Counted from the stretch's first letter, positions 34,974-54,071 are shown. The stretch is 64,000 nucleotides of DNA from Podarcis cretensis (GCA_951804945.1 OX638150.1:20522001-20586000), one strand, 5' to 3'. The notes: a model not told the origin generated them from the letters alone. Made by a program: numbers and translations.

Positions 34974-35177
<204 letters not shown>

Positions 35178-35593
35178 TAAGTACCCAAAGAACCCCAATA
35201 TTCATAACTGCATGGATCATGACAACTTTGCATGTTGTTGTTGTTGATGTTGCCATAAGGATGGAACTCTGTGCCTCACTGAAATTTGTGTTTAGCAACA
35301 GAGGGAGATGTTGGTGATGCAACTTAAGCAAAGAATTTTAACGCTGAATTGGCCAATACATGCAAGTAATCTAAATTAACTGCAGAAAGCTCCTGCGTAC
35401 CAACTGTTGCACGTAATGTGATTTTGAGAAGTTTGTCTGAATACATTGCAGAATCGCATCTAGCTTAAAGACATTGGGTTCTATTCTCTCCATAAATGCA
35501 TGCACTGCCTTGCTCATTGTCATTACTCATTCATTAACGAAGAGTGTTGAGCATGTCCCAAGGAGACTGGACCCTCGTTTACTGGGAACCAAA

Positions 35594-36184
35594 TCAAATC
35601 AAAACTTTACTGCGCTCCAAACACCCACCCACCAATTTCAAAACTAGATACAGTTAAAACGACCAGACAGACAGATGGAAGAAACCAAGGCAGTCATTTT
35701 GTTTTATCTAGGGCATAATGATCTTTGTTTCTTATAACCTCCAAAAGAAACTTTGCCACGGCCAGTGTAATATCATTTGACCTGTCTTCCAAAAGATATT
35801 TAATGTGGGAGGCGTGGGATTTTCCCGGCTAATTTGCCAGTAAGGGTTTGATCAGTTGATCCCTTGCTTGGCTCATATTGCCCACAATGCAGTAGGATAT
35901 TCTTCATGCAGTCGACCTCCTGGGAACATAAACAAAGCCTATTCTGATAGGGGTTGCCTCTCAGTCTGCCATTTAGAACTTCCGAGGGAAATACATTTAG
36001 TCTGGCTTTGGTAAATAAACGCCGATAGGTAGGTACAGACAAATTCCTAAGGTATGAGGATATCTGAAAGTCGTACCAGTATTGGATTCCAGCTGCGACC
36101 AGGCTACAAATTACATAAGATTGGGATCGCAGGTCGCTATGTGAGATGTCCCAAAGCCTTTGCCTCAGGGATTCAAGGGCAGTG
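35594..36184 (-). mobile_element. 5'-truncated non-LTR retrotransposon (clade uncertain)
   Basis: 15-bp TSD TTACTGGGAACCAAA (35579-35593, 36185-36199); (ATTTG)n-like tail; ORF2-like end RRLFTKARLN...RLCLCSQEVDCMKNILLHCGQY. Confidence 0.8.
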
Positions 36185-36933
36185 TTACTGGGAACCAAAA
36201 CAGGTATATTTACATGGGGGAGGGGGGGGACAAAACACAAGGCTTCAGGTAAAACATTAGTATTTGCTTTTTTGAAGTCCCCAACACTATATTTTCACAG
36301 ATGAAGAAGAGCCCAACCTCAAAATATAGACTTGAGAGAATTTGGCTCTCTTGGTGGTATCTGGTTTATCAGTGTACCGTATTAGCACATTTCCTCAGTA
36401 GGCCTTCATAAATATATGGGCCAAGCTCCAAAGAATTGTGAAACTAGTTCCAGGTGTCCAAGGTGGCTCTGGGTTCAAGAGCAGCTCTCTGTGCCACATG
36501 GCAAAACACTTCCAAAATGGAAGGGAATTGGAAACAGATTTTGAAACGTGACATGGTAGTCTGCTATTCAAAGAAAATTCCCCAAATACTGCTAGATGTA
36601 GCCAAGCTCTTAGGCATATGTAAACTCATTTTTTGGATCACAGTTATGTTTCACCACAGTGTTGCGGGGGGCAGCATGTTTCTCAAATCCTTTTTATTTA
36701 TTTATTAGATTTATATACCTCCCTTCATCATAAGATGTCAGGGTTAGGGTAAAATACAGGATAAAAACATGGAAAGAAGTAAAACAAAACAGCAAAGCAG
36801 TAACCTGACCTTCCCACAGACACATTTAAAAGGCTGTAGAATATTAATCAGCCAAAGGCTTGGTTGAAGAGGAATGTTTGCCTGGCACCTAGAAATATAT
36901 AAAATACACACAATCATAAACATATTAGATATA

Positions 36934-37174
36934 CAGTTGTACCTCGGAAGTCGAACGGAATCTGTTCCGGAAGTCTGTTTGACTTCCAAAATGTTTAGAA
37001 ACCAAGGCGCGGCTTCCGATTGGCTGCAGGTAGCTCCTGCAGCCAATCGGAAGCTGTGTCAGACATTGGGGTTCCAAAGAACGTTTGCAAACCGGAACAG
37101 TCACTTCCTGGTTTGCGGCATTTGGGAGCCAAAACGTTCGACTCGTAAGGCGTTGGGAATCCAAGGTATGACTG
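36934..37174. mobile_element. Tc1/mariner MITE (CAGTCATACCTTGG family)
   Basis: TIRs; homology to 34370 in inverted orientation. Confidence 0.82.
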
Positions 37175-37534
37175 TGATATAATGAGGAACCACTACAGAG
37201 AAGGCCCATTCTTCTCTGTACAGAGAAGAACTACAGAGAAGACTACTTCTAGAGTAAAAAAAAAAAGGTTCAGTTTTCTAGGGTGGGGTATAGATATTGG
37301 TGCACATACAGGACAGAGCAAAGACTTGTCAAGTAAGAAGTACACAGTTTCAGCTTGGGACACTGGCGCAGTTCCAGTTGCCTTTCGGAATTGGAGCTCC
37401 TGGCAAGCTGGAAGCAAAGCAACTTGAAAGTATTTTTAACTCTCCTCTTTTTAAATAGTCACACTACTGCAAGTTACACGACACAAATCCTAATTACAAT
37501 ACTTATTTACAGCAGTAGTAAGCTCTATAGTGTT

Positions 37535-37870
37535 GGGACACGGGTGGCTCTGTGGGTTAAACCACAGAGCCTAGGACTTGCCAATCAGAAGGTCGGCGGT
37601 TTGAACCCCCGCGATGGGGTGAGTTCCTGTTGCTCGGTCCCTGCTCCTGCCAACCTAGCAGTTCGAAAGCACATGAAAGTGCAAGTAGATCAATAGGTAC
37701 CTCTCCAGGGGGAAGGTAAATGGCATTTCTGTGCGCTGCTCTGGTTCGCCAGAAGTGGCTTAGTCATGCTGTACGCCGGCTCCCTCGGCCAGTAAAACGA
37801 GATGAGCGCCACAACCCCAGAGTCGGCCACGACTGGACCTAATGGTCAGGGGTCCCTTTACCTTTACCTT
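37535..37870 (+). mobile_element. Sauria SINE (subfamily B, internal deletion)
   Basis: TSD TAAGCTCTATAG; (ACCTTT)n tail. Confidence 0.9.
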
Positions 37871-37882
37871 TAAGCTCTATAG

Positions 37883-38052
37883 CAGAACTTTCCAGACTTT
37901 TCATGTTGGTGACACACTTTTTAGACACGCATCATTTCGTAACACAGTAATTTAGTTTTACTAGCAAGGAGCGTGGGAAGCATGTGCGTGAGGCACCTAC
38001 ACAAGGCGGCCGACACACTAGCATGTCGCGACACACAGTTTGGAAAGCTCTG
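37883..38052. mobile_element. hAT MITE
   Basis: TIR CAGA(A/G)CTTTCCA; 8-bp TSD CTCTAT(A/G)G. Confidence 0.78.
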
Positions 38053-39413
38053 CTCTATGGAAAGGTAGATATTGATGTGAAAAAATGTGATACCCTCAGG
38101 AGGTTTCAAGCTGCACATTTGCTAAAGCAAGGTGGCCTACAGTCATTGTTAATATTGTCATTATTTTCCTCGATTCTTGCACCTTATTTTCTCTAGCAGC
38201 ACCATAGGAGTTCTCTTGCTTTCGTTTATCTCTCTTTTGGACCACACTTGTTGCTACTCAAATTTAATAGCTATCCTACATTTCATGTAGATGCTTGTGA
38301 GCCCAGAGATTGAATACTTCTCAAAGTTGCTGTTTCTCACTACGCATCTTGCTCTGTTGCCAAACAAGTTCAGTCTGCAGACTTTGTTAGTCTGGTAGGT
38401 CTAACCTTCTCTGCGTTGTTGGTTTAGACATCGCTTAAAATGACAGGTTCATTATAGTACAATAGTGGATATTCAGTGCAATCCAAGACTTCACTGGAAC
38501 AGGAACTTTTTGTTTTAGTTTTATTTTTCATTTTTTTCTGTGACCATGTGTTTGCCACAGGGACTGACCCTCCAGGGCTAACTACATGCCCCGTAAATCT
38601 TTCAATAAAGTTGGCAATAACCTTGTCCTCACATCTAGTAATCAAATGTAGAATACCTTCAAACATTCATTTTCCATTTTTCGGTCTTGGAGACCGAATC
38701 AATTAATTCTTCCCCCCCCCCAAACCACTTTTATGTTCCTGTGCTCCTGTGCACTTGAACATCATTGCTGAAGGGTTATGGCTGTCACTTGTTCAAATGG
38801 GTTAATTTGATTGCTTTCATCAGGAAGTCCAGATTTTTGGGGGGTGGGGTGCAGAGGACATCTTAAGTTCAGGCTCCTTTTTTAAAAAGTCTTCTTCAAT
38901 GCATTTGGCCCAGCTGGAATAGTCAAATGTTTTGAGAAATATATGCAACAGTGTATTGACTTTCTTACCTTCCCTTTCTCTTTCCCCAATTCTTAAGCAT
39001 GTGTGTGTTGGTTGGGATGGAAGAGGTAAGGGTAGCTGTTGGCTTCATGAAGTTGTTCAGTTTCAGTAGCAGGAGAAAGGAACCGAATTCCGTTCTTTCT
39101 ATGGATTGTGGAGGAGTTGCCTCTTGTTAAACAAGAGCATATTACATTCTGCTTCTCCTTCTAAGCTGTGTATAAAATAAAAGTTGAATCCCCCCTCCCT
39201 TCTCTCTCTCTTCCTCTTGTTGGGGATGCAGGCATGTGGGCACAATGCACTTTTCTAAAATAGTCTCCTCCTGGAAATCTGTACAACTTTAGTCTACCCT
39301 TGCCTCACTTTTCCCCAGAATGTAACCAGTTTTATCCTCACCGCTCTTGGTTTTGGCTCAGCCCTGGTTTCTGCCTGAGATCTCAATTCCTATCCTTCTG
39401 TGTGTTTTTGCAG

Positions 39414-39536
39414 CCATGCCCGATTACGCTGTATGTGCACCTGCAACAGGTGTACATTTTGCATCTGTCAGAACCTCCTCAACTCAGACTTGCTGCAATC
39501 TGTAAAGAACAAACTCTTCACCGCAGTTCTTAACAG
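39414..39536 (+). CDS. RHOT1: RHOT1 alternative Cys-rich cassette exon (HARLRCMCTCNRCTFCICQNLLNSDLLQSVKNKLFTAVLNR, 41 aa)
   Basis: tttttgcag| acceptor, AG|gtctt donor, 123 nt, phase 2-2, open. Matches my recollection of the 41-aa insertion in mammalian Miro1 splice variants. Confidence 0.92.
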
Positions 39537-42059
39537 GTCTTTGATTTTTATTTACTAGGTACCAGGCGTGCTTTAAAAGTACTTTTATTAAAACAAATGG
39601 TTGAACTTTGTAACTGAGACACAGGCACTTTGCTCCATATCCATTGAGCAGGCAAATGTACCCGATATACAAGCTTTTCTCTTCAGGTAGTGCTTATCCT
39701 AATTGGCATTTTGAATCTCAGCCATTTAGCAAGTACAAAAATGTGAGTAACTTAATGTAGCTTGCTAGAGAGCTTGGGGGGATGGGGACAAGCCCTTGCT
39801 AGTCATTTCATACAAAATAGCTGTACTATTAAATTTATATGCAACTTTGATGTAGATTTTAAAATTTCTATGTGCAGGCAAGTTAAGACATGAGAAACAC
39901 TGTACAGCCCTGGTCAGCAACTAAGTTTCCCACAAGGCAATTTGGACAAGGGAGTGGACCAGTGGTACCCTCGACCATAAAAGTGACTTGCCATTGGGTT
40001 CTGTTACCTCTGAAACCATTTTCACCATGATTTTGCCTCTTGTTCAGCAACCAGGTGGCAAATTAACATCTTTTAGGAGTCTAGATTTGACCGAGAGCTT
40101 CCGGTTGCTGACCCCCACGCCCACCGTACAGTCTAAATGTGTGTATATTTTGGTTTATTGATACGAGTCAAAAGCACTTCCAGAGTTTAGAGCACAAATG
40201 CTCGGTCCCTGCAAATGGATATGGTGCGATGAGATCTGTGGCATTAACAACAAATTCCTCCTTTAGAAAATAATCCCTACTTACATAAGTTTTACGAATG
40301 CAGCTGGGGCAAATCGTTCTCTGTTCAAGACATTCAGATATTTTCTTTAGAAAGTTACTAGCAACAAACTAACACTGGCTGAATACTTTTTTAGTACAGT
40401 AAGCCCGCAACTTGGATGCATTCAGCTTTATGTGCATGGCAAAAATAATAATAATAATAAAGGGGCGGAAAGGTTCCAGAAAAAAGGACTTTGGCAATCC
40501 CACCCGCCATTAAACCCAATGGCTTTTGGGGCACGATCCTTGGAACGTGAGTTGCAGGCCTACTGTATTACGAACAGTCACGCAGCTTATCTACGCTGCT
40601 CCTTGCGTCTGCTAAATCCTTTTTTTCTTTTTGTGAACATAGAACAGGATTTGCCAGCGTTCACTAGTGTCAGATCAGACCCAGCAGATGAATGGGAGTT
40701 AAAAATCAAAGTATATCTCCATGGCGTAATACAGGGTTGGAGTTGCTGGGGCTGGAGCTGGGTCCCCCACCCCTGCAGCTAGGGGGAACTTGTTTAATAG
40801 ACAACAGTATAGGATAATTATAATTCTTATATGCACTGGGAACCCCCCCCCCAAAAAAAAAAAAAAAAATCGTGAATTGCTTTACTGTGACATTCGCTCT
40901 ATTGCGGTGGTCTGGAACAGAACTCGCAACATCTCCGAGGTATACCTGTGTACTCCCTTAGCTGGTAGCCTTGTTTTAGTTGCCTGTGGTTGGAAAGCAA
41001 AGTTTAAAATGCATTATGTAGCTTGATTTGTAGAACGTCGGCTAGCAACACACACAGGGTGCATGAAGGCAGTTCTGTTTTCCAACGAACATTTCACCAC
41101 AGCTTTTCATTAACTGTCTATTAGGAAGATCTGTAAGGAACATGAAAGTATTCATGCGGGGGGGGGGTGTCCTTCCATAGTCTGAACCCCTCACCCCATA
41201 CCTATGCCGCTTGTTCCTTCCAGCTGCAGAGCTAGCTATTAACTGCAGCTGGAAAACTTAAATAGGAAGCCAGTCTCTCAGTTGTTTTTCAGAAGACTCC
41301 TGGATAGCTTAAGTGCTCATACCCAGCCTCCCTGCAACCCAGGCAAGAAGAATGAGGTCATTACCCTGACCTCTGTTTAGATTAGAGCATGGTACTGTGC
41401 CAGCAACAGGTCTCAAATCTTACAGTTCTCCTCATTCATCAAGACGGGCCCTCAAAAGAAAATACAATCTCCTCTTGAGGGCAAGAGGGGACAGCAAGGT
41501 TGGGGGGCGGTTGTTCAGCCAGAGCTGGGTAGGCAGAATCTGAACTCGGAGCGAGAGTTTAAGGATCTTTCCCCTCAATCCCCAGATAACGTTCTGTCTT
41601 CATTGTTTGAGACCTGGGCCTGTCGGCCTCTTTTTTTTGTACCCACGGCTCTTCCACAAAATAAGCGTTGCTACACATAGACATTAGCAAGTCAGGGAGA
41701 AGGCTTGGCTAGATGATTTCATTCTGAACCTAATCTTTCAGATGTTTTGGGTGTGGGTGTGTTTGCACGGAACAGCATTCAGTCATGTGAGCTCCCACCC
41801 ATAGACTGAAGTGGCACAATGCAGACACCCAGTTTTTCACCTCGGCCACTGTTTATGAGAACCTTGGCTTGAGAAGTTGTTGGACACCAGCTCCCATCAG
41901 CCCCAGACAGCATGACCAATTGTTATGGATGATAGACACACCAGAACTATGAGAATCTTAGGTTCTTTGGCTGAGAGAGACCTGCACCTGAAATTTGGGA
42001 AGGCTACAGGCAATGTCATCTAACTTTGTTAAAATCTGGTTCAGAATAAGAACAGAGTA

Positions 42060-42309
42060 CAGTCATATCTTGGTTGTCGAACACCCTGGAACTCGGACAT
42101 TTTGGCTCCCCAACGCCACAAACCCGGAAGAGATTGTTTTGGTTTGCGAACGTTCTTTTGGAACCCGAACGTCCAATAGGGCTTCCACGGCTCTAATTGC
42201 TCTAATAAGCTCCTGCAGCCAATCAGAAGCCATGATTTGGTTTTCGAACATTTTAGAAGTCGGAACAGACTTCCAAAACGGATTCTGTTTGACTTCCAAG
42301 GTATGACTG
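42060..42309. mobile_element. Tc1/mariner MITE (CAGTCATACCTTGG family)
   Basis: TIRs, TA TSD. Confidence 0.82.
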
Positions 42310-42353
42310 TATTCTAAACCTCCACTTCTTTGACTCCTTATTTGTGTGCAGTA

Positions 42354-42595
42354 CAGTGGTACCTCAGGTTACATACGCTTCAGGTTACATACGCTTCAGG
42401 TTATAGACTCCGCTAACCCAGAAATAGTACCTCGGGTTAAGAACTTTGCTTCAGGATGAGAACAGAAATCGTGCTCCGGCGGCGCGGTGGTAGCAGGAGG
42501 CCCCATTAGCTAAAGTGGTGCTTCAGGTTAAGAACACTTTCAGGTTAAGAATGGACCTCTGGAACGAATTAAGTACTTAACCCAAGGTACCACTG
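42354..42595. mobile_element. Tc1/mariner MITE (family of 12016)
   Basis: CAGTGGTACC TIRs, TA TSD. Confidence 0.88.
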
Positions 42596-43722
42596 TATCT
42601 GCTTTGCATATATGCACTCAGAACAAAAAAAAAGGGGGGGGTCTGTCACTTCTTGAGTGCATATGCAAAACTGCCTGCAGGTTTTCAGGATGTGAGCATA
42701 GCCTATCTGGGCTTTGCTATTTCCCCCACTGCCCCCATTTTACTAGGTAGCACACCTGTGGGAGGTTTATGTGCGAGTCCCATAGAAAGAACAGTGTGAT
42801 ATGTGGTTCTGCAGTTTCAGAGAAGAGCAATAGTTCTCTTCTCAGGAAACTTCAGAATATTCGTGCCTCTCCTCTGTACATCTCACTGATCTCAGTGGGA
42901 CTCTTTGAGGTAAAGGAGGAGAGCATTGCAGCCTTGAATTAGAGCTGACACACTTTTAGACACACTTCTAATCTTTGTGATGGAACTGTTCCCAAAAAGA
43001 AAGTGCATTCCGTTAATTGAGGTCTTGAGAAAATGAATTTCTGGACCACAAGCCTGGAAGTTTAATGATACTTTCTTCTAGCTGGTAAGCGGGGAGCTAC
43101 AAGACTGAAGTTGTAAGCCTCATGTCACCCTTGTGGGTGGAGTGGGCAGCGGTGTGGGGAGCAGGGGCAAAAAGCCTACAGGATGCTTCACAGGAACTTT
43201 TAACGTGCTCTGGATCCACAGACCTTTTCAAAAGAAATTATAAAGATGGAAAATCACTGCAATGCTGAAGTATATCCTGTAGTGCAGGGGTGTGGAGTCT
43301 TTATCAGCCGAAAGGCTGCGCTCTTTTCTGGGGCCCCTTTTGAGGACTGTCACCATTGGTGGGCGGGGCCAGAGGCAAAAGTGGGAGGGGCAACAAATTA
43401 TTACCGGCTATTCTTTATTGTTTCTTCTGAACAAGCAAGAAACATTGACATATTCAAGGACAGATTCCAGGAAGGCAAAAATGCCCAAGGTGTAAAGCAG
43501 ACTGTGTGGCCTGGGGAAGTTTTTGGGGCAAAATAAAGGGTCTGTTATTTGGCTGTAGGTTCATCAACCCTGACACAGTTGAATGCAGTAGTCTTGGTTT
43601 GAGCTTTCCAGGAATTCTGACTTTAAAGAGTTGATTAGGAACAAATACTGTACACCACATGCCTTCGATAAAACAGTTGAGCCATGCTGGATTATTTTTG
43701 TTTCATTCATTTTCTCCTTTAG

Positions 43723-43789
43723 GTGTTCATTTTCATTTGTCTGGCTGGCATTGACTCTCCTCTTGCTGCATTCTTGTGCCTCTCTTTGA
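43723..43789 (+). CDS. RHOT1: Candidate alternative terminal or poison RHOT1 exon encoding a hydrophobic tail (CSFSFVWLALTLLLLHSCASL*)
   Basis: Very strong acceptor TTTTTGTTTCATTCATTTTCTCCTTTAG|G; the phase-2 frame gives a 21-aa hydrophobic tail then TGA. Confidence 0.35.
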
Positions 43790-44289
43790 AAATGACGTTT
43801 CTGTGTGTGCCTTCTAATTCCGTGTGTGTGTTTCTAATCCATCAGCTTGGCAGTTTCCATTTGGTTCTCTGCATGTCTTGTGTATATTGGAGGCTGATGT
43901 TCTGTGTCTGCCTTGTTGCCTTGTTCCTCTGGTATGATTAGTGTTTTACTCTGGCCTGAATCCCTTCATGGGTAAAGTTGAAGCTCAATATGATGGTGGA
44001 AATTTCCATCTGAGAGGTCACCCCCCCCCCCCCCGATCTTGATTCTTTGAAGCTGAAAGCCTATTGGAAAGGCTTTTTCTTAAAATAAATATAGATTGGC
44101 CATTGTGTTAAAAAGAGAAGAGGCAAAAACCCAAGTGTTTTCATTTTTGTGAGTTTCATAAATGGAAAAGAGGTACGCATCTCCAGTTACATGGAATCAA
44201 GATCTTGGCATGTTGCGTTGATTATGCGCTGAGTCAAGAATGATTCCAACTACTGTTGGAGAGCCATCTTTATCTCTCACTTTAAATTA

Positions 44290-44443
44290 CTGTATTTTTC
44301 CGTGTATAAGACTTAGGTGTTTTTTACCCAAATAAAGAGGTTTGAAATTGGGGGTCGCCTTATACACGGGTAGTGCTGAGGGGTGTTTTCTTAATTTGGA
44401 GTCCCCAAAAAATAGGAGACGTCTTATACATGGAAAAATACGG
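44290..44443. mobile_element. Tc1/mariner-type MITE
   Basis: TIR C(T/C)GTATTTTTCC.TGTATAAGAC. Confidence 0.78.
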
Positions 44444-45446
44444 CATATCCTCACTTTATAGTCTCTACCACCCTGAAGATTTTTTTTAAAAGGTCACAAT
44501 TCTTTGGCTTGTTTCCCTTCTGATGCTGTGGGAAATGATTGTGCTTCCCAGTTTCTTTGCCCCCTTCCAAAGGTCTGGCATTGGGACTACAAAGATCAGG
44601 AAAAAACCCAACATGGTGCCCTTCACATTTTGTCGGACTCCAACTCCCAACTGGTCTGGGATCATAGGAATTGTAGTCCAGCAACCATAGTGACTAGCCT
44701 TGGCACACATGGCCTTTTAATTTACCAGTGCCTGTCATTGTTGTGTGTGGCAGGGCCCTCATTTCTTCTCTCCAAACTCCTATACCTCTCCACCCGCAAT
44801 GTTGCCTTCATTTGAGGGTTGTCTTTGATGTGCTTCATTCATCTTTCCTCCATCTTCATGAATGGCCAATTGGTATTTGCAAGTGTGACGCTTGATTGGA
44901 CAAGAGGTTGGATTATCAATTCAGCACTCAGTATTGATGGCAAGATGAGCTGTATCCTTCTTTGTATGAAGTAATGTGTAACTGGGGGCTTATGAAGCCT
45001 CCCCACATTTTATAAGCCTTACTGTATGTCCTCCTGAGTTCTTAAGAGTAGATTTAAGTCTGTTCATTCCTGATCCTGATTATTCATTTGGTTTGTCTTT
45101 GGAAGAAGCTTGTCAATATTGTGCTAACTCTTTACCCTGTCAGGCCCATTATAACTCAGTAGTAGACATACAACTGTAGGCAGGTAAAAATAAATAATTA
45201 GTCCAAATGAAATACTTGCCACCTATTTTCTTTTTCTTTTATTTAGGAGGATCTCCCCCGTCTTGTCGCCAAAAAGAAGCTCCCAAATTTCTTTTTAAAC
45301 TCTCTTGAATTCAGAGAATTATGGGAAAGTGTGGTTGAGGAGAATAAAAGATCTGCTTGACAGAGTTTCAAAAGTGCAACAGGTTAGGGTAGGCTTTTGA
45401 AAAGGAATCTAGGAAGAAAAAATAGTGGATGTGTATCTCTGCATTA

Positions 45447-45501
45447 GGGACGCAGGTGGCACTGTGGGTTAAACCACAGAGCCTAGGACTTGCCGATCAG
45501 A
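45447..45501 (+). mobile_element. Sauria SINE 5' stub
   Basis: Only the first ~55 nt of the SINE are present. Confidence 0.75.
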
Positions 45502-45657
45502 CACCGATCTGGGCGTTTAAAGGCAGGTTAGTGATGTGCTAAAGCTTTCCTCATATTTAGCATGCAGGAAGTCCTGAGTCTTGTCATAACTCTTCCCAGT
45601 TTTCTAGTTAAGGCTACTAAAACTTTGAGGGAGCGAGGATTGAACAATGCGTTAGAC

Positions 45658-45899
45658 CATTGGTCAGCAAACTTTTTCAGCAGGGGGCCAGTCCACTGTC
45701 CCTCAGACCTTGAGGACTATATCTTGAAAAAAAATATGAACGAATTCCTATGTCCCACAAATAACCCAGAGATGCATTTTAAATAAAAGGACACACTCTA
45801 CTTATGTAAAAGCATGCTGATTCCTGGAACTTCCGCGGGTTGGATTTAGATGGCGATTGGGCCTGATCCAGTCCCCGGGCCTTAGTTTGCTTACTCATG
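45658..45899. mobile_element. hAT MITE
   Basis: 8-bp TSD (C/T)GTTAGAC; homologous to 29999. Confidence 0.85.
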
Positions 45900-46631
45900 T
45901 GTTAGACAGTCATCTTGACTTCTGCATGTTCCTGGCTTGTTGAGTAGCATCACATTCCCAGGCAAAACTAATGGTTCTGCTCAGTTAATTCTGCTGGTGT
46001 GTTAACTTGTCCTATGACTGCTGGTTAGCCCAGTTACTGTGTTGAAATTGACAGTGTACACTCTGCTTACAAAATAGAATATCTGTTGCTTTTGTTTGGA
46101 AAGCACAGGCTGCATTTATTAACATAAAATGCTTGTTTTGTTGATTAAATAAAAATGGTCTTTCTGAAACATTGGTAAACCCTTGTGCATATGCTCTTTA
46201 AAAAGGAACGTAAAGGCTTAATGCACTGCTAATACTGTACCTGTATGATCTAAAGAGATTTTATAGGGTATTAAAGTTGCACTGTAAATGGCTTTGTAAA
46301 ACTTTCCTGCTTATTCGAAACAAGTTGAAGCCACTGTTCCATAATCACATAGGGTACTAATACATAATCCAGCTATTGCTTTACACCCCCCCTTGAAATC
46401 TTTTGAAATGAAGGAAAATAATCTGTGCTTTAATCCTGGAGGCACTGTGTGCGAGTGACTCCCATGTTTTGAGAAATTGGTTGATTACCTGCCCTGGATG
46501 GGGCTACATTTCCTTTGTAGGAGCAGGTACGCAGCCTTGGGGGGCTTCTGGACCCTCTTTTGTCACTGGAGCCCCAGGGAGCCTCAGTAGCTAGAAGCAC
46601 CTTTTACCAGGTGTGCCTGGTACAACACATA

Positions 46632-46878
46632 CGGTGGTACCTTGGATCCAGACCACCCTGGAACTCGGACGTTTTGGCTCCTGAATGCCGCAAACCCGGA
46701 AGTGATTGTTCCGGTTTGCGAACGTTCTTTTAGAACCCGAACATCCGATGGGGCTTCCATGGCTTCCAATTGGCTGCAGGAGCTTCAGCCAATCAGAAGC
46801 CACAGTTTGGTTTGCGAACATTTTGGAAGTCGAACAGACTTCCGGAATGGATTCCCTTTGACTTCCAAGGTACAACTA
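46632..46878. mobile_element. Tc1/mariner MITE inserted in a decayed L2-like fragment (~46430-47250)
   Basis: Homology to the 42060 family; flanks resemble the L2-like fragment at 51350-52600. Confidence 0.75.
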
Positions 46879-48031
46879 CACAACTGTTCTGAACCAAGAG
46901 AGCCTAACCACAGTGGTTTGGGCATCAGTGACTTAAAAATTGGATTACTTCAATGCACTCTATGTGGGGCTTCCCTTGTGCTTGATCCAGAAACCGCAGT
47001 TAGTACAGCAGCTGATAGGAGTGAGACCCTGTCAGCAGATAACGCCTATGCTTAGAGATCTGCAGTGGTTGCCGATTTGTTACTAGGCCAAGTTATGATG
47101 GGTATATAAAGCCCTTGACACCCTGTGTACTTGCAGGATTGCCTTCCTCGACCGCTTTGATACGTTTTCAATTACTTGTTCTTTAACTCTTATTGATCAT
47201 TTTAATATGGTTGCTATCAAGCAGTATATAAATTTTGTGAAATAAATAAGATAAATGAAATATATCTGCTTGTGCTGGCACATGTTGTGTGCTTGTTCTC
47301 AGACCATCTCTGCTAGCATGGTAATTTTTTGGATGAAATTGTTAGGGTTCAGTTCTTAGAGGCTAAAACTAAACTTGAGACTGGCTATTCTAACAGTTAA
47401 GTAGTGCAGAAGTACACTAAGCACCCTTCAAAGTCAGCACAGATATATTCTGGTCTTAGGAAAATATGTTTGAAGTGGCCCAAACTTAGGTTTTTAGAAA
47501 ATGCATTTGGTGAAACTTCTATCTTTGGGTAAACAGATGCTTTCTTGGCTGTTTTCCTACATCACCATCCCTAGTTCTCAAATACGTTTCAAAATAAAGA
47601 GCTTTGCTTATGGGTGGCATTTAGCTGGCTGGGAGTGGCTATTCTTCCCTTCTTTCATTTTGTACTTTGAGGGCACGAATACCTGAATACAGATATTATA
47701 CACATGAAGTGCACAGCAATGTGTAGAATTAGATTGACACCTTTTTAAAAACGGGGGGGGGGGGGTCCTTTGCCAGCTGCTGCTTCTGAGGTGTTTTAGA
47801 TGCACCTTAATTCTGTGTGTGACTTTATGGGGCATGCTTCTGAATATAAGAAGTAAACAGTGAGAATCTGCTCCCAACACACTGTTAAGAAAGCTATTTG
47901 CTTTCTTTCTTTTTCTTTATGAATATTTCCTATGAACGAGTATGTATGCCTTGAGTATGTTTGCCTTGCCTAGCGAATGGGGATCTTAAGGTAGCTTCCT
48001 GTATATTTAAACCACAGTAGAATAGACAGTA

Positions 48032-48376
48032 GGGATGCTGGTGGCGCTGTGGGTTAAACCAGAGCCTAGGAGTTGCCGATCAGAAGGTCGGCGGTTCAAA
48101 TCCCCGCGACGGGGTGAGCTCCCGTTGCTCGGTCCCTGCTCCTGCCAACCTAGCAGTTCGAAAGCACGTCAAAGTGCAAGTAGATAAATAGGTACCGCTC
48201 CAGTAAACAGCGTTTCCGTGCACTGCTCTGGTTTGCAAGAAGCGGCTTAGTCATGCTGGCCACATGACCTGGAAGCTGTACGCCGGCTCCCTCGGCCAAT
48301 AAAGCAAGATGAGCGCCGCAACCCCAGAGTCGGCCACAACTGGACCTAACGGTCAGGGGTCCCTTTACCTTTACCT
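48032..48376 (+). mobile_element. Sauria SINE (subfamily B)
   Basis: TSD TAGAATAGACAGT. Confidence 0.92.
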
Positions 48377-49343
48377 TAGAATAGACAGTGGCACACTCAC
48401 ACAATAGACAGTGGTACACTTAGAATGAAACCAGGTTTTGTGAGGAAAACAGGCAGTTCCAGGCTCATGTACCCCTCTTAATGCTAATGAGGGACCAAGG
48501 GGACATTTGGTTAACAGCTGATTCTCCTCTGTGCATGTCCCAATTGCTATTTTTGCTTTGTTGCTCCAGCTAGTCTAGAAGACCCTGGGAGCATTTGTAG
48601 GGTGAGAATTAGTTGGCAGAAGAAGCACCAAGCACCTCGATCCAAATGCCCTCTCCTCATTTTCATTTAGTGGCAGGCACATTTTGGAAACCTGTTTTGT
48701 GGCGTAACGTTCTGCCCTTATGATGGCACCACTTGACCTTGCACAGTAATTCTATGCTTTATTCAAAAAAGCAGTGTTTCCATGCATAGTGTAAAACTAA
48801 ACAAAGCAAGCATACAGAAGCACAACACAAAATCAGGAATAATGAGTGAGTGTGGATCCTTTTAATACTGGATCATGCATTTGAGAACCTTAAATCTCTA
48901 CGCAAGCGGAAGGAAAACAAATAAAATACGGAACATTCGAGTTTGGAAGCAAAAAGCAATCCATGTGATCTAACTTCAAATTTTCCCAACAGCCCTTCTG
49001 TAAAATTAAGGCACATTTCAGAGATAACAAACAAAAAGTTTTTTTTGTGAGTTAAAAATATCTCTGAGGAATATCACCTGTTCTTTGGCAAGAATGCTGG
49101 ATCAATTTCCGTGTCACCTGGCAATTCTTTTGCTTGGGATGGCTGTAAAAAAAAAAGTAAAAATACTTTCCTTCCACTTTGATAATTAATTTTTACGTGC
49201 CACTTTAATAACCTGCACACAAAGCAAAGGCTCTCCTTGTTAAAAAACAGAGTGATAGCTGACTTGTAAGCTGTGTTGGTGCGTAACTTGACTGTTTCTC
49301 GCCATGCTATGAACTGCCCACTGTGTGCATGTGTGTAAAAAAG

Positions 49344-49487
49344 GTTAAGAGCCGCTGTAGCTGAATTGGGTGCCATGCTGTTATCAGACGAGGAGAGCAG
49401 TATTGTTCACCAGGTGCACGCCGTCCGCTCTGTAGAGGATTCCATCTTCATGGAGTCATCCCTTGATCCTCAGTTACTTGAAGACAG
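49344..49487 (+). CDS. RHOT1: Candidate unannotated RHOT1 cassette exon (LRAAVAELGAMLLSDEESSIVHQVHAVRSVEDSIFMESSLDPQLLEDR; +48 aa)
   Basis: Open frame bounded by AAG|G at 49343/4 and CAG|GTAACA at 49487/8; 144 nt, phase 2-2; CpG-retaining; acceptor is weak. Confidence 0.6.
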
Positions 49488-51349
49488 GTAACACAATCTT
49501 AACTTAATCTCTCCCTAGAGGAGAAACTTAGACAATGCCTTGCTCTAAAATACTTAGAACTAACCCCATGCTAGAAACAATTGCCATTAATCCGTTTGAA
49601 GTTCACCCCTGCCCAAAAAAAGATTTGGAGTTTGTCTGTAGGTGGTTTTGTACGTGGCTTCACTGATCACCTGCAATAAATAGTCAAAGCACTTAATTTG
49701 CATGGGATTTCGAGATGTGCCTAAATCCCTGGAGAATCTGGTTTGGCCTCCTTGTGTAACAGTGTGTAGCAGTTGTATAATCCCTGCTTTTATTGAAGGA
49801 GCCCTGGTCATTTTTGAATTTGCACTCCGAAACCTGCTCTGTCTGTTAGGGTGTACGTGCACTTGGATGTCTGCCTCGTGTACTTTAGAAGTTTCCCCAT
49901 TATTTCTAATTTTGATTTTAAAACGCCTAGGCCAGAAAATTCTTTCTAGCCTTTTGTTCTATAGGGCAGTTCTAAATCAGTTCCGTAACACTCAATTTGA
50001 GAATCGCTGTGCCTTGAACTAAGGTCGCTGCAGTGACCTTTTTGCTTGAGACCGTGTCTGTCGCATTGTGGTAAGCCACCTTATTTTAGCCAGGCTAGCT
50101 GAGCATGCTCACAAAATGGTGCGTGTTGGGAGCTTCCAGGTCACTGGTTGTGTGTTTTCCTTTGGTCTTGTCAAGCTCATCGTGGCTTCCTTTCATCTAC
50201 CATACCCATGCTCTTCTGTTGCATTTTGTTTTCCTCGTTTGATATCAAGGCCTGGCTCACTAACCTCTTAGCTCACATTACCGTTTTTACAGCATTATGA
50301 GTCCTCCAGTTGTGCCATTACTACACATGGGCCAAAAATGAAGAGGAGGAGGGAGGGCGATAATTTTGTAGTTGTCTACTGTACTAAGAAAATGCTGTTA
50401 ACAATTTTTTTTGAAAGACGACTTTGATTGAAGTTTTAAGGAAACATGCAAGAACATAAAAATATAATGCAGTCCCAGCAAACCAGGAAGCAAATGGGAA
50501 TATTGCAGTTATAAAATAGGAAAATAAAATAAAAAAACTGCTCTTAACAACAACCATATGAAAGCCACCCAAGAGCAATTTTCCAGCACCCCTCTCTAGG
50601 TGTTTTGCGAAGCTGATGATTACTGTAGCCTGGGAATCACCAGCGTGGGTTTGTGCTTATGTTAGCTAAACCAGTCCTTGGTATCCGTAGAGACAGCTCC
50701 AAAGGGGAAGGGGTGGGCGCTAGGGAGAAGAGGGTAGACCTAGGAGGTTAAAATACCTATAGCCGGCCCTGATTGTGTGTTGTTTTGATATGATAAATAC
50801 ATTTATAGGCATTTTGCTGCTCTAGCTGTTGGAAAGTATTACACTTGTCAGTTCAAAACGGCCCATTTCATTGCATGAGAAAATAACAGGTTAAATTGTC
50901 AAAAGTCCCCCCAAAATGGGAGTTCAAGCATTTGAAATGATAGCAAGACACATTGACTGCAACTCTGATCCTCTTGAGCCCAGAGCACCAGGAGATAATT
51001 ATTGGTTATATCTTAGTGTGTAATTCTGCATCAACTTTCTATAGCCAAAGTATTTCCGCGAGTCTGGTTTTCCCAGACTTCATCCCGTTTTGAGAATTTT
51101 CTTGTAGCCCCAATCAGTGGAGGCTTTCGCCAGTGGTGGAGGGGCAAGCAGGCACTGCCAGTTCCCCTCTTGAAGCCCCCTGCCACTTGCACTGTTCCAG
51201 AGGGTCTCTCGACCCCGTGGAACAGATTTCTAAGGCTTAATGGGGGCAGTCTGCAAAAATACTTCCAGCTCCACCCCTTTAAGCCAGCAATAGCTTCTGC
51301 TGGATTAGAGTCTGTGCCCTATATTGGCCTCTGAAATAAATGCATGAAT

Positions 51350-52600
51350 CTTACTATCTTACGTTTGATTATTTATCACTTCTTTCTAGACTGCTTTGGG
51401 ATCTCAGGGCTGTTCACATTAACAGAACAGCAAACAGTACAAGAAAATCACTGAAACCAACATATGCATTGAACCCCAGAAGTTCAAACACACATTGAAA
51501 GTGTCCATCAGCAGATCTGTATTAATGATCCAGCACAAAACATCGAACCTGGATACATGAAATATATCTAAAGTTTTCTGTGGAAACTCCGCAGTGAGGG
51601 TGACTGGCACTTCTCCAAGTGAAGGGAGTTCCACAGATGGAGCACCACCATAGACAAGACCCTATCCCATGTCACGGTGCAACAAGCAATGCTCATTGGC
51701 AGGACTGCAAAAACAGCCTCCCCTGTATATCTTAAGGCCTGAGCCAACAGATACAGGGGCAGGTCCTTCCTGTGTTTGGGCACTAAGTTCTTCAGGGCTT
51801 TATAAGTTGATATCAACACTCTGAATTGAGCCAAATTTGAGAATAGGTGTAATATGATTCCACCTAGAACTCTAGCTGAAGCTTCTAGACCATTTTCAAT
51901 GGAAGTCCTACACACATCCAGGCATGAGGCTACCAAAGCGTGGGTCACAGTGGCAAGACGGTCCTGCTGCTGGAATATCTGGATGCAGGTGGCGCTGTGG
52001 TCTAAACCACTGAGCCTCTTGGGCTTGCCAATCAGAAGGTCGGTGGTTCGAATCCCTGTGATGGAGTGAGCTCCCGTTGCTATGTCCCAGCTCCTGCCAA
52101 CCTAGCAGTTTGAAAGCACGCCAGCGCAAGTAGATAAATAGGTACCACTGTGGTGGGAAGGTAAACGGTGTTTCCGTGCGCTCTGACTTCCGTCACTGTG
52201 TTCTGTTGCACCAGAAGCGGTTTAGTCATTCTGGCCGCATGACCCGGAAAGTTGTCTGTGGACAAGCGCCAGCTCCCTCGGCCTGAAAGCAAGAAGAGCA
52301 CCGCAACCCCATAGTCCCCTTTGAGTGGACTTAACCGTCCACGGTTCCTTTACTTTTACCTTTACCTGTTCCTGGAATAGCTGGAGCAGGAAATAGCCAC
52401 TTATTGCCACTGAGGCCAGCTGATCTTCCAGTGACACTATTGGATCCACAAGTACCTCCAAGCAACATACCTGCTCCTTGAGAAGGATCATGATTTTGTC
52501 CAGGCAGTTCATCTCCACATTTCCTGGACGCAGGAACTACTCATAAGTTCTTCCGCCTTATCAGTATTCAGTCTCCGTTTACTCACCCTCGTTGAGCCCT
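51350..52600 (-). mobile_element. Decayed L2-like LINE fragment, interrupted by a SINE
   Basis: Minus-strand peptides HALVASCLD, FRVLISTYKAL, FS..LHLWNSL are typical of the L2 ORF2 C-terminus; approximate bounds. Confidence 0.65.
51981..52367 (+). mobile_element. Sauria SINE (subfamily C)
   Basis: Full body and (ACCTTT)n tail; degenerate TSD CCTG.T.CTGGAATA. Confidence 0.88.
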
Positions 52601-52735
52601 TTACTGTCTCCACGCAATAAGTTTGATTCATCAAACAATAATTTCAATTATATCAAATTGGGTTTTCCTGTAGCTGAGCAGTGCTTTGAAAAGTTGGAAC
52701 AAAAGCATCGACTCCTAAGATTTTACAAGAAATAA

Positions 52736-52984
<249 letters not shown>

Positions 52985-54071
52985 TCTGGAAGAAAAGCAC
53001 GTTTCTCGCAGGGGAGGGGCCTACCAAAAGGGAAAGAGAAAGAAACTTTTATGTACATTCTAAATCCGCTAGAAATATTTATATATGCAAGTTACTTTAT
53101 TACTTGTAATTCATGGATAAGATTATTTTAAATGATAGCTCTAAACTTGCAGTATTGCGATGGTTGTGAAAGATGTTTTTGCATTACAGTGGCTAACAGA
53201 AAACGGCTACATTTGTTAAGGCCCAAAGGGAATTATTGTAAATATAACTTGTATATATTAAGGCAGCGAGCCGTAATGTCCCCCAAAGTTATTATAATTG
53301 GCATTAATAGATGTTTCAAATGGAGTGAGTGAGAGTGTAATTAGAATTTGTTTTAAGCAATGTAGGTTCAAGTCCAGGATCACCATTCATTTATTTATTT
53401 CACAGGTGTATGACGTTCTATCTTTGGGCTCACAGTGCTTGGGGGAGAGTTGAGTTCTCTCCTCTTTCAGTAGCTGAACTGCTCCTTTACCCACAGATCT
53501 TATTTCACAAGTGTTTCATTCCCACTGCAGCTTTTATTGGACTTGGATTAATTATTTTTACATCCTAGGTTAAGCAGCAAAATGTGCCGCAGGTCAAGAA
53601 TGGGGGGGTGGGGGTGGGAGAGAAGGAGAGCTGTGCATTCCCTCCGACAGAAGAGCAGCAAGCATCATCCGTGTGTTTGTCAGAATCTTGACTCTTGTGT
53701 GCCATTCCGCAACTCTCTCGTTTCCCACTCTGTTGTGTTTTGCACACTTTTCAAAGGGGGGGGGGGCGGTGGCAATCAATTTGTATATTACAACTGTTTA
53801 TAATTCCAAAGTGTTTTGTTTCATCCTCACTTCCGCAAGCCATTCTCCCAAAAGCTGGGCGTATGGGGTAGAGCCGAAATATTACACAGTGCTTTACTCT
53901 CTACTTGGTAGATTAGTTGCATGGTTTGCACTGCGTCCTATACTTCGCTGGAATTACCTGTAGGTGGCATTTTTGAACAAAAAAGAAGGTCAGGAAACCT
54001 CATAAGCGGAAATTCCTCACTGTCGAACCTATTTCCCCCCCCCCCCCATCACTGGCCTTTTCAAGTATTTC

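Follow-up and report, generated by a model that had tools for sequence, protein, structure and literature searches.

An ancient, annotated and functionally uncharacterised third insert in the Miro1 stalk, encoded in the last intron of RHOT1 of Podarcis cretensis

Known Miro1 inserts and the exon at 49344-49487

Miro1, the product of RHOT1, serves as the principal scaffold of mitochondrial transport and of Parkin, TRAK, MYO19 and VPS13D binding. In passages of PMC5800816, PMC7001505, PMC8077184 and PMC11402688, Miro1 is described with two inserts or four isoforms. Insert 1 (exon 19, 32 amino acids [aa]), found in Miro1-var2 and var4, binds Pex19 (PMC5800816), and insert 2 (exon 20, 41 aa) is found in Miro1-var3 and var4 (PMC5800816, PMC7001505). 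Inserts at this site of the stalk alter Pex19 binding and organelle sorting (PMC5800816, PMC7001505), and the two known inserts decide between mitochondrial and peroxisomal Miro1. Passages of PMC5063418 and one supplement row of PMC8775431 both refer to a 123-nt exon, and PMC9251440 reports a Rhot1 exon that is unnamed in its text passages. Here we describe a further exon at this site, located in a 64,000-nt stretch of DNA from the lizard Podarcis cretensis (GCA_951804945.1 OX638150.1:20522001-20586000; hereafter the window). Full-text searching found no paper on this exon, although it may be recorded in subscription papers, in splicing databases or in supplementary tables of exons.

The entire RHOT1 gene lies in the window on the + strand, as do all exons and splicing elements given below, and extends from an ATG near position 2707 to a stop codon at 52984, as mapped by tblastn with two database isoforms. 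The last constitutive cGTPase exon (34974-35176) ends in a phase-2 donor, and the terminal coding exon (52867-52984) encodes the transmembrane anchor and the stop. The exon under study, at 49344-49487, lies in the last intron, between the cGTPase exon and the anchor exon. It is 144 nt long, open and in phase 2 at both ends, and comprises 48 codons, i.e. 47 whole codons and two split Arg codons. Its phase matches those of the donors at 35176 and 39536 (the latter belonging to exon 20) and of the terminal acceptor at 52867. The acceptor reads AAAAAAG/G and is preceded by an in-frame TAA (49336-49338), and the donor reads CAG/GTAACA. A second AG, 6 nt downstream of the first, would give an in-frame 138-nt version (49350-49487), which is unused in both full-length Podarcis muralis models (P0001 and P0309). 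The length, open frame, borders, phase and second AG of the exon had been listed in a sequence-only reading of the window, in which the exon was proposed, and each was found in the sequence as described there. The same reading contrasted a GC- and CpG-rich exon with an AT-rich background; the exon is indeed richer (51% GC, 5 CpG) than the flanking introns (40-44% GC), but the contrast is modest and the terminal exon reaches 50% GC.

Within 35177-52866, 491 open AG..GT segments of 60-300 nt were counted. In 21 of them the donor agrees with the consensus at 7 or more of 9 positions, and four of these 21 are at least 144 nt long. The raw sequence thus does not set the exon apart from chance; it is raised above chance because of its homology to database isoforms.

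Occurrence of the insert among vertebrate Miro1 isoforms

The 47 whole codons of the exon are 100% identical to the corresponding residues of the P. muralis proteins A0A670HR36 (UniRef) and XP_077780096.1 (RefSeq isoform X1; P0309). The latter, of 1035 aa, holds the insert letter for letter and is 48 residues longer than isoform X2; XP_028567395.2 (987 aa) lacks the insert. The exon had been presented as hidden, a description that does not hold, given that RefSeq and UniRef models, those of P. muralis included, already contain it.

A search with the peptide gave 24 matches among 234 candidates, namely 23 long RHOT1-containing models and one short read-through open reading frame (ORF). A profile built from nine inserts found 40 matches among 7993 candidates and added bats, camel, coelacanth, teleosts and rays. 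Cluster look-ups further added chimpanzee (XP_063655711.1), New and Old World monkeys, rodents, carnivores, ruminants, a whale, a caecilian, frogs and snakes. Orthologous inserts are thus present at the same site in sharks, rays, sturgeon, gar, bowfin, teleosts, coelacanth, caecilian, frogs, snakes, turtles, crocodile, birds, bats, rodents, carnivores, ruminants, whale and primates; carriers also include Callorhinchus (XP_042198291.1) and Danio aesculapii (XP_056309478.1). The separation of sharks from chimpanzee spans about 450 million years. Reptiles, birds, amphibians, fish and mammals, the groups in which a tBLASTn comparison of RHOT1 loci had been suggested, all have predicted orthologues at the protein level, and the exon is neither restricted to reptiles nor missing from mammals. 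In the 10 species compared, 26-38 of 47 residues are identical to the lizard insert. The exon may well be present in humans, as its occurrence in other primates suggests; it is missing from X1 (722 aa), the single protein with a human label among those listed.

The upstream anchor motif was located in 285 fetched proteins of at least 200 aa, and 117 of these contain the exon, a proportion that is no frequency because the set was enriched by exon-directed searching and includes many close relatives. Exon 20 is also present in 111 of the 117 carriers, and the six carriers lacking it are UniRef or genome-submitter predictions, none of them a RefSeq isoform model. Of the two upstream junctions that had been envisaged, 39536>49344 is accordingly likely and 35176>49344 unlikely. 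The length of the insert could be measured in 108 carriers and is 48 aa in 78, 49 aa in 19, 46 aa in six, 50 aa in two and 44 aa in one, with outliers of 88 and 110 aa; thus 106 of 108 inserts are 44-50 aa long and differ by whole codons. The anchor exon follows the insert in 114 of the 117 carriers. Isoforms with and without the exon are annotated within the same species, forming 618/659/707-aa series outside mammals (619/660/709 aa in Callorhinchus), to which 32 aa are added in the series that include exon 19. Alternative isoform models of NCBI generally need transcript support.

Neither exon 20 nor the new exon was seen in the tunicate Miro and RHOT2 proteins inspected. The insert had no Pfam match and no match among Protein Data Bank (PDB) sequences, its best values in the ESM Atlas (0.82 and 0.77) were at chance level, and its profile found no relative among 596 metagenome stretches. 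Nine matches were obtained in a search of 1.84 billion representatives, all of them short read-through ORFs of the same exon.

In an alignment of 59 sequences without frogs, numbered here by the long isoform of an eagle, a 15-residue core (643-657) stands out with a mean modal frequency of 0.90 and lies in the interior of the exon rather than at its edges. Residues G630, L633, Q644, V645, H646, E652, D653, S654 and S660 are invariant in this alignment, and frogs change several of the invariant positions. Taken together, 49344-49487 is very probably a real coding cassette. It is an ancient and annotated third insert of the Miro1 stalk, functionally uncharacterised, which annotation pipelines have already modelled.

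Splicing signals, a candidate stalk module and transcripts

The lack of a pyrimidine tract at the acceptor, pointed out in the sequence-only reading, was borne out: 12 of 25 nt are pyrimidines, compared with 15-24 at 20 other scored sites, a range biased upward because 17 of these sites were automatically chosen as the most pyrimidine-rich AG near an exon start. Upstream of the acceptor lies an AG-free zone of 71 nt (49271-49341), a length reached by 0.8% of the AG-to-AG gaps in 39538-52866; two other acceptors of RHOT1 also have long AG-free zones (81 and 97 nt). The zone contains TTGAC, whose A falls at 49291 (-53), and a short run of pyrimidines comes after this motif. Position 49291 is likely to be a displaced branch point that compensates for the weak tract, and the weak acceptor would then be found because of the AG-free zone and this branch point-like motif.

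The three flanking motifs that had been reported are all present, namely TGCATG at 49326-49331 (13-18 nt 5' of the exon) and 49699-49704, which we take to be RBFOX elements, and ACTAAC at 49559-49564, presumably a QKI element. The chance of finding TGCATG or ACTAAC within 250 nt of any point is about 7-10% per motif. At the downstream TGCATG, no difference is listed by the contigs of sequencing runs X1 and X13. The upstream TGCATG appears to be conserved across vertebrates, as judged from translations rather than aligned DNA: in 11 of 12 read-through ORFs of other vertebrates, CM or VHV, corresponding to two of the window's frames for TGCATG, occurs at this position. This element lies between the likely branch point and the acceptor. 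Binding of RBFOX upstream of an exon usually represses inclusion, and inclusion is likely to be held low by the weak acceptor together with the upstream RBFOX-type site. Its position runs counter to the suggestion of neuron- or muscle-specific inclusion, whereas the downstream site could act oppositely.

For the protein, an AlphaFold2 model of the eagle long isoform was computed from a 114-row alignment. A first fold on the 59-row vertebrate alignment had a mean predicted local distance difference test score (pLDDT) of 39 and was dropped. One sequence that was used solely to deepen the alignment is an intron-free Miro frame of about 620 aa on a metagenome contig (L001, 2492-4360, + strand), with 77% identity to a Phallusia protein and 58-69% to other tunicate Miros. 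The core of the model is confident (mean pLDDT 81), and its best structural match is the MIRO1-TRAK1 cryo-EM chain. One predicted helix (605-635) spans the junction of exon 20 and the new exon (pLDDT 55-63 over 601-630), and the following region (632-679) has pLDDT below 50 and is predicted to be disordered. The hydrophobic moments on either side of the junction point alike (302 and 282 degrees), and such in-phase helix faces would fit the dependence of the new exon on exon 20. The net charge of the new exon is -5 to -8 versus +5/+6 for exon 20 in five species. The amphipathic helix and acidic stretch that had been proposed to lengthen the stalk thus have counterparts in the model, the helix as a predicted N-terminal one. 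In the cryo-EM dimer, the last visible residues are less than 20 A apart and close to the anchors (PMC12227652), so that the 89 residues added by both exons would be expected to lift the catalytic core well off the membrane.

These features suggest a stalk module that depends on exon 20, since database models join the cassette on top of that exon. The first approximately 14 residues would extend the amphipathic helix of exon 20, and the remainder would form a disordered acidic spacer that moves the basic helix of exon 20 by 48 residues from the anchor. Offsetting or repositioning this helix would likely shift the sorting of Miro1 between mitochondria and peroxisomes, and a conserved short motif, probably partner-binding, may be exposed. 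We regard a conserved, exon 20-dependent stalk module with a sorting or partner role as the best explanation overall, with a probability somewhat above even; that this mechanism is the main role of the exon we would put at an even chance.

Several observations weigh against the cassette or this role. Across the 59 sequences the exon is less conserved than its neighbours, with a mean modal frequency of 0.77 against 0.92 in exon 20 and 0.96 in the terminal exon, and substitutions are no more conservative than in a neutral nucleotide simulation in 10 of 10 pairs (fraction reaching the observed score, 0.07-0.81). The predicted helix is of low confidence and its hydrophobic moments are small (0.22-0.31). 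Every carrier is an automatic gene model, and a protein database can show open frames only. Finally, published reports disagree on the effect of exon 20 alone, which raised the peroxisomal pool in PMC7001505 but not in PMC5800816.

The transcript data belong with these points. Seven distinct runs cover the region, X1, X7, X22 and X20 over 48400-53100 and X1, X5, X13 and X23 over 48900-50400; X1, X5, X7 and X13 are contig sets, which drop rare forms and whose RNA status was guessed, and X22, X20 and X23 are raw RNA runs, of each of which 6-12% was read, giving shallow depth. In X1, X7, X22 and X20, no exon junction occurs among the 5 joints and 49487>52867 is not listed, the loose-end table of this comparison being swamped by a repeat at 51975-52362. 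Over 48900-50400, X1, X5, X13 and X23 gave no joint and no loose end at either exon border, and the sole loose end (49859) matches nothing in the window. The junction reads that had been proposed as a check were accordingly not seen at the exon borders in the seven runs at this shallow depth. Contigs of X1, X5, X7 and X13 cross at least one exon border unspliced at a depth of 4-8, and the terminal exon has a depth of 99-110 in X1 and X7. In X22, the exon has a depth of 1.8, the bins on either side of it 0 and 0.13, and the terminal exon 9-15, while other bins of the intron reach up to 1.75; the exon has no depth in X20 and X23. Contig differences number 0 in the exon versus 8-17 in the flanking intron, which is not significant (p 0.07, 0.15 and 0.21). 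Inclusion is therefore low or absent in the sampled runs, and the argument that the exon is spliced comes from the many automatic annotations. The isoform is, we infer, a minor product of particular tissues.

Alternative roles, neighbouring features and comparison with known inserts

The exon might instead be mainly a conserved splicing-control element whose low inclusion yields a tolerated protein without a special role, which is unlikely. The low inclusion in the examined runs and the near-neutral substitution pattern would agree with this, as would the intron just upstream, which in the 12 read-through ORFs appears conserved among vertebrates although the reading frame changes, and thus points to constraint at the nucleotide level. 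However, the differences among orthologous inserts from sharks to primates are whole codons and the frame into the anchor exon is kept, the peak of conservation lies in the interior core, and the exon gives no RNA structure signal (z 0.08) and no Rfam match.

A second possibility, quite unlikely in our view, is that the insert is a client of Miro1 itself. Leu633/634 of a G-x-x-L-L-A-D motif would enter the protein's own ELF pocket and a QVHAV strand would pair with the first GTPase domain, in the same chain or in the dimer partner, so that the insert competes with TRAK, MYO19, VPS13D and Parkin. In known clients, a Leu or Phe beside an acidic residue (FADI, FADV, LADI) is followed by a strand about 12-17 residues further on (PMC10897228). 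The insert resembles them in that, besides the invariant G630 and L633, L634 is conserved in 55, A635 in 57 and D636 in 48 (Asn in 10) of the 59 sequences, and the invariant Q644-V645-H646 lies 10-12 residues past L634 (QVHAV, 10-14). The stalk, of about 100 residues, should be long enough to reach back. The motif falls at the end of the low-confidence predicted helix (pLDDT about 39). On the other side, the monomer model contains neither strand pairing nor docking for 632-679 (pLDDT 23-39, from a shallow alignment there). Frogs read LMTD, LITD, LMAD, LIAD or MFAD and 12 carriers read LLAN, and according to PMC10897228, whose own motif search was neither sensitive nor specific, client motifs are too divergent for prediction from sequence. 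If the insert did act in this manner, Miro1 would alternate through splicing between an open adaptor and a form that blocks or tethers itself, and would do so in every jawed vertebrate, humans very likely among them.

It is very unlikely that the main product is an anchor-less, soluble Miro1, formed by use of the acceptor but not of the donor, with translation ending at the AGG TAA spanning the donor (49486-49491), directly after the insert. This in-frame stop, an AATAAA at 49675, two of the 117 carriers that end there (P0076 and P0104) and one contig of run X1 that starts at exactly 49344 and continues through the donor to 49859 would fit such a product. Yet 114 of the 117 carriers go on into the anchor exon, the same stop would arise from any phase-2 AG/GTAA donor, and the contig has no letters of an upstream exon and may derive from pre-mRNA or DNA. 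Most improbable is a direct tether to the endoplasmic reticulum, in which the conserved acidic and aromatic stretch EDS-IFMESS would act as an FFAT-like motif for VAP: although E-D-S lies upstream in 59/59 sequences and core position 2, aromatic in all FFAT motifs by requirement (PMC8077184), is aromatic in 59/59 (Phe in 53, Tyr in 6), position 4 (Glu in 52, Gly in 6 and Ala in 1 of 59) does not provide the conserved acidic or phosphorylatable residue, the Asp is lost in frogs, and the best scores in seven species are 5-10 for phospho-FFAT (PMC7705450 Table EV4) and 4-7.5 under a rough conventional adaptation of that table, against a cut-off of 3.

Other features of the locus were also identified. 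Exon 20, the usual upstream partner of the cassette, lies at 39414-39536 (123 nt, 41 aa, net charge +5), as located by tblastn and alignment. Its six Cys and one His are invariant in 59/59 sequences and could possibly form a metal site or an S-acylation cluster near the membrane; the model is of low confidence there. A second, alternative last exon at 43723-43789 has a strong phase-2 acceptor (22 of 25 pyrimidines) and encodes 21 hydrophobic codons and a stop, with AATAAA at 44084 and 44331 and TGCATG at 43870. Tails of the same kind end seven fetched proteins (turtle, chicken, python, bowfin, two loaches and Denticeps). Compared with the normal anchor, the best 18-mer hydrophobicity of this tail is 1.81 versus 0.95, and no Lys or Arg stands behind it; it would likely serve as an alternative tail anchor directed to some other membrane, or else be a poison exon. 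A 14-residue addition behind the cGTPase exon in two P. muralis UniRef models (P0025 and P0026), mapping to approximately 35658-35693, is probably a prediction artefact and is absent from the fetched proteins of other species. At the other end of the gene, 5' of the RHOT1 ATG, the RefSeq models of P. muralis reach 936-1035 aa, and RING-type Pfam matches precede Miro1 in P0240 and in bird and camel models (P0024, P0081 and P0089); these RING-fronted models likely represent read-through with an upstream RING gene. The 3' introns contain two dispersed repeat families, with copies at 37530-37870, 45442-45501, 48027-48377 and 51975-52362, and at 42058-42308 and 46630-46877, respectively. The copy at 51975-52362 has a very high read depth, as for a common mobile repeat.

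Like insertions 1 and 2, the new exon lies between the cGTPase and transmembrane exons, preserves the frame, has AG/GT borders and occurs in isoforms with and without it, the last point resting on annotation. As the sequence-only reading held, this 48-aa insert is neither of the two, since its sequence is unrelated to theirs and both lie upstream of it in the same proteins. Insert 1 is mammal-specific (PMC5800816), and mammalian exon 19 left no tblastn trace within 35177-39413. Insert 1 has a tested Pex19 site, unlike the new exon. Exon 20 shares no sequence likeness with the new exon, and its peptide gave no tblastn match near 49300, as a duplication origin of the cassette from exon 20 might have left. 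Exon 20 is Cys-rich and basic, whereas the new exon is acidic; exon 20 may be included alone, whereas the new exon is almost always accompanied by it.

A third insert that extends from sharks to chimpanzee and is tied to exon 20 implies that the known set of Miro1 isoforms is incomplete and that a long Miro1 form exists even in vertebrates outside the mammals, where exon 19 is lacking. Long RHOT1 isoforms in RefSeq and UniRef carry the same exon at the same position, although the insert is unnamed there and has no Pfam family or solved structure. With the motifs by which CENPF, TRAK1/2, MTFR1/2/1L and VPS13D enter the ELF pocket (PMC10897228, PMC12227652), the insert shares a Leu next to an acidic residue and a strand-like stretch. 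Those motifs reside in other proteins and were validated by mutation, whereas the motif of the insert is in Miro itself and is undocked in the monomer model.

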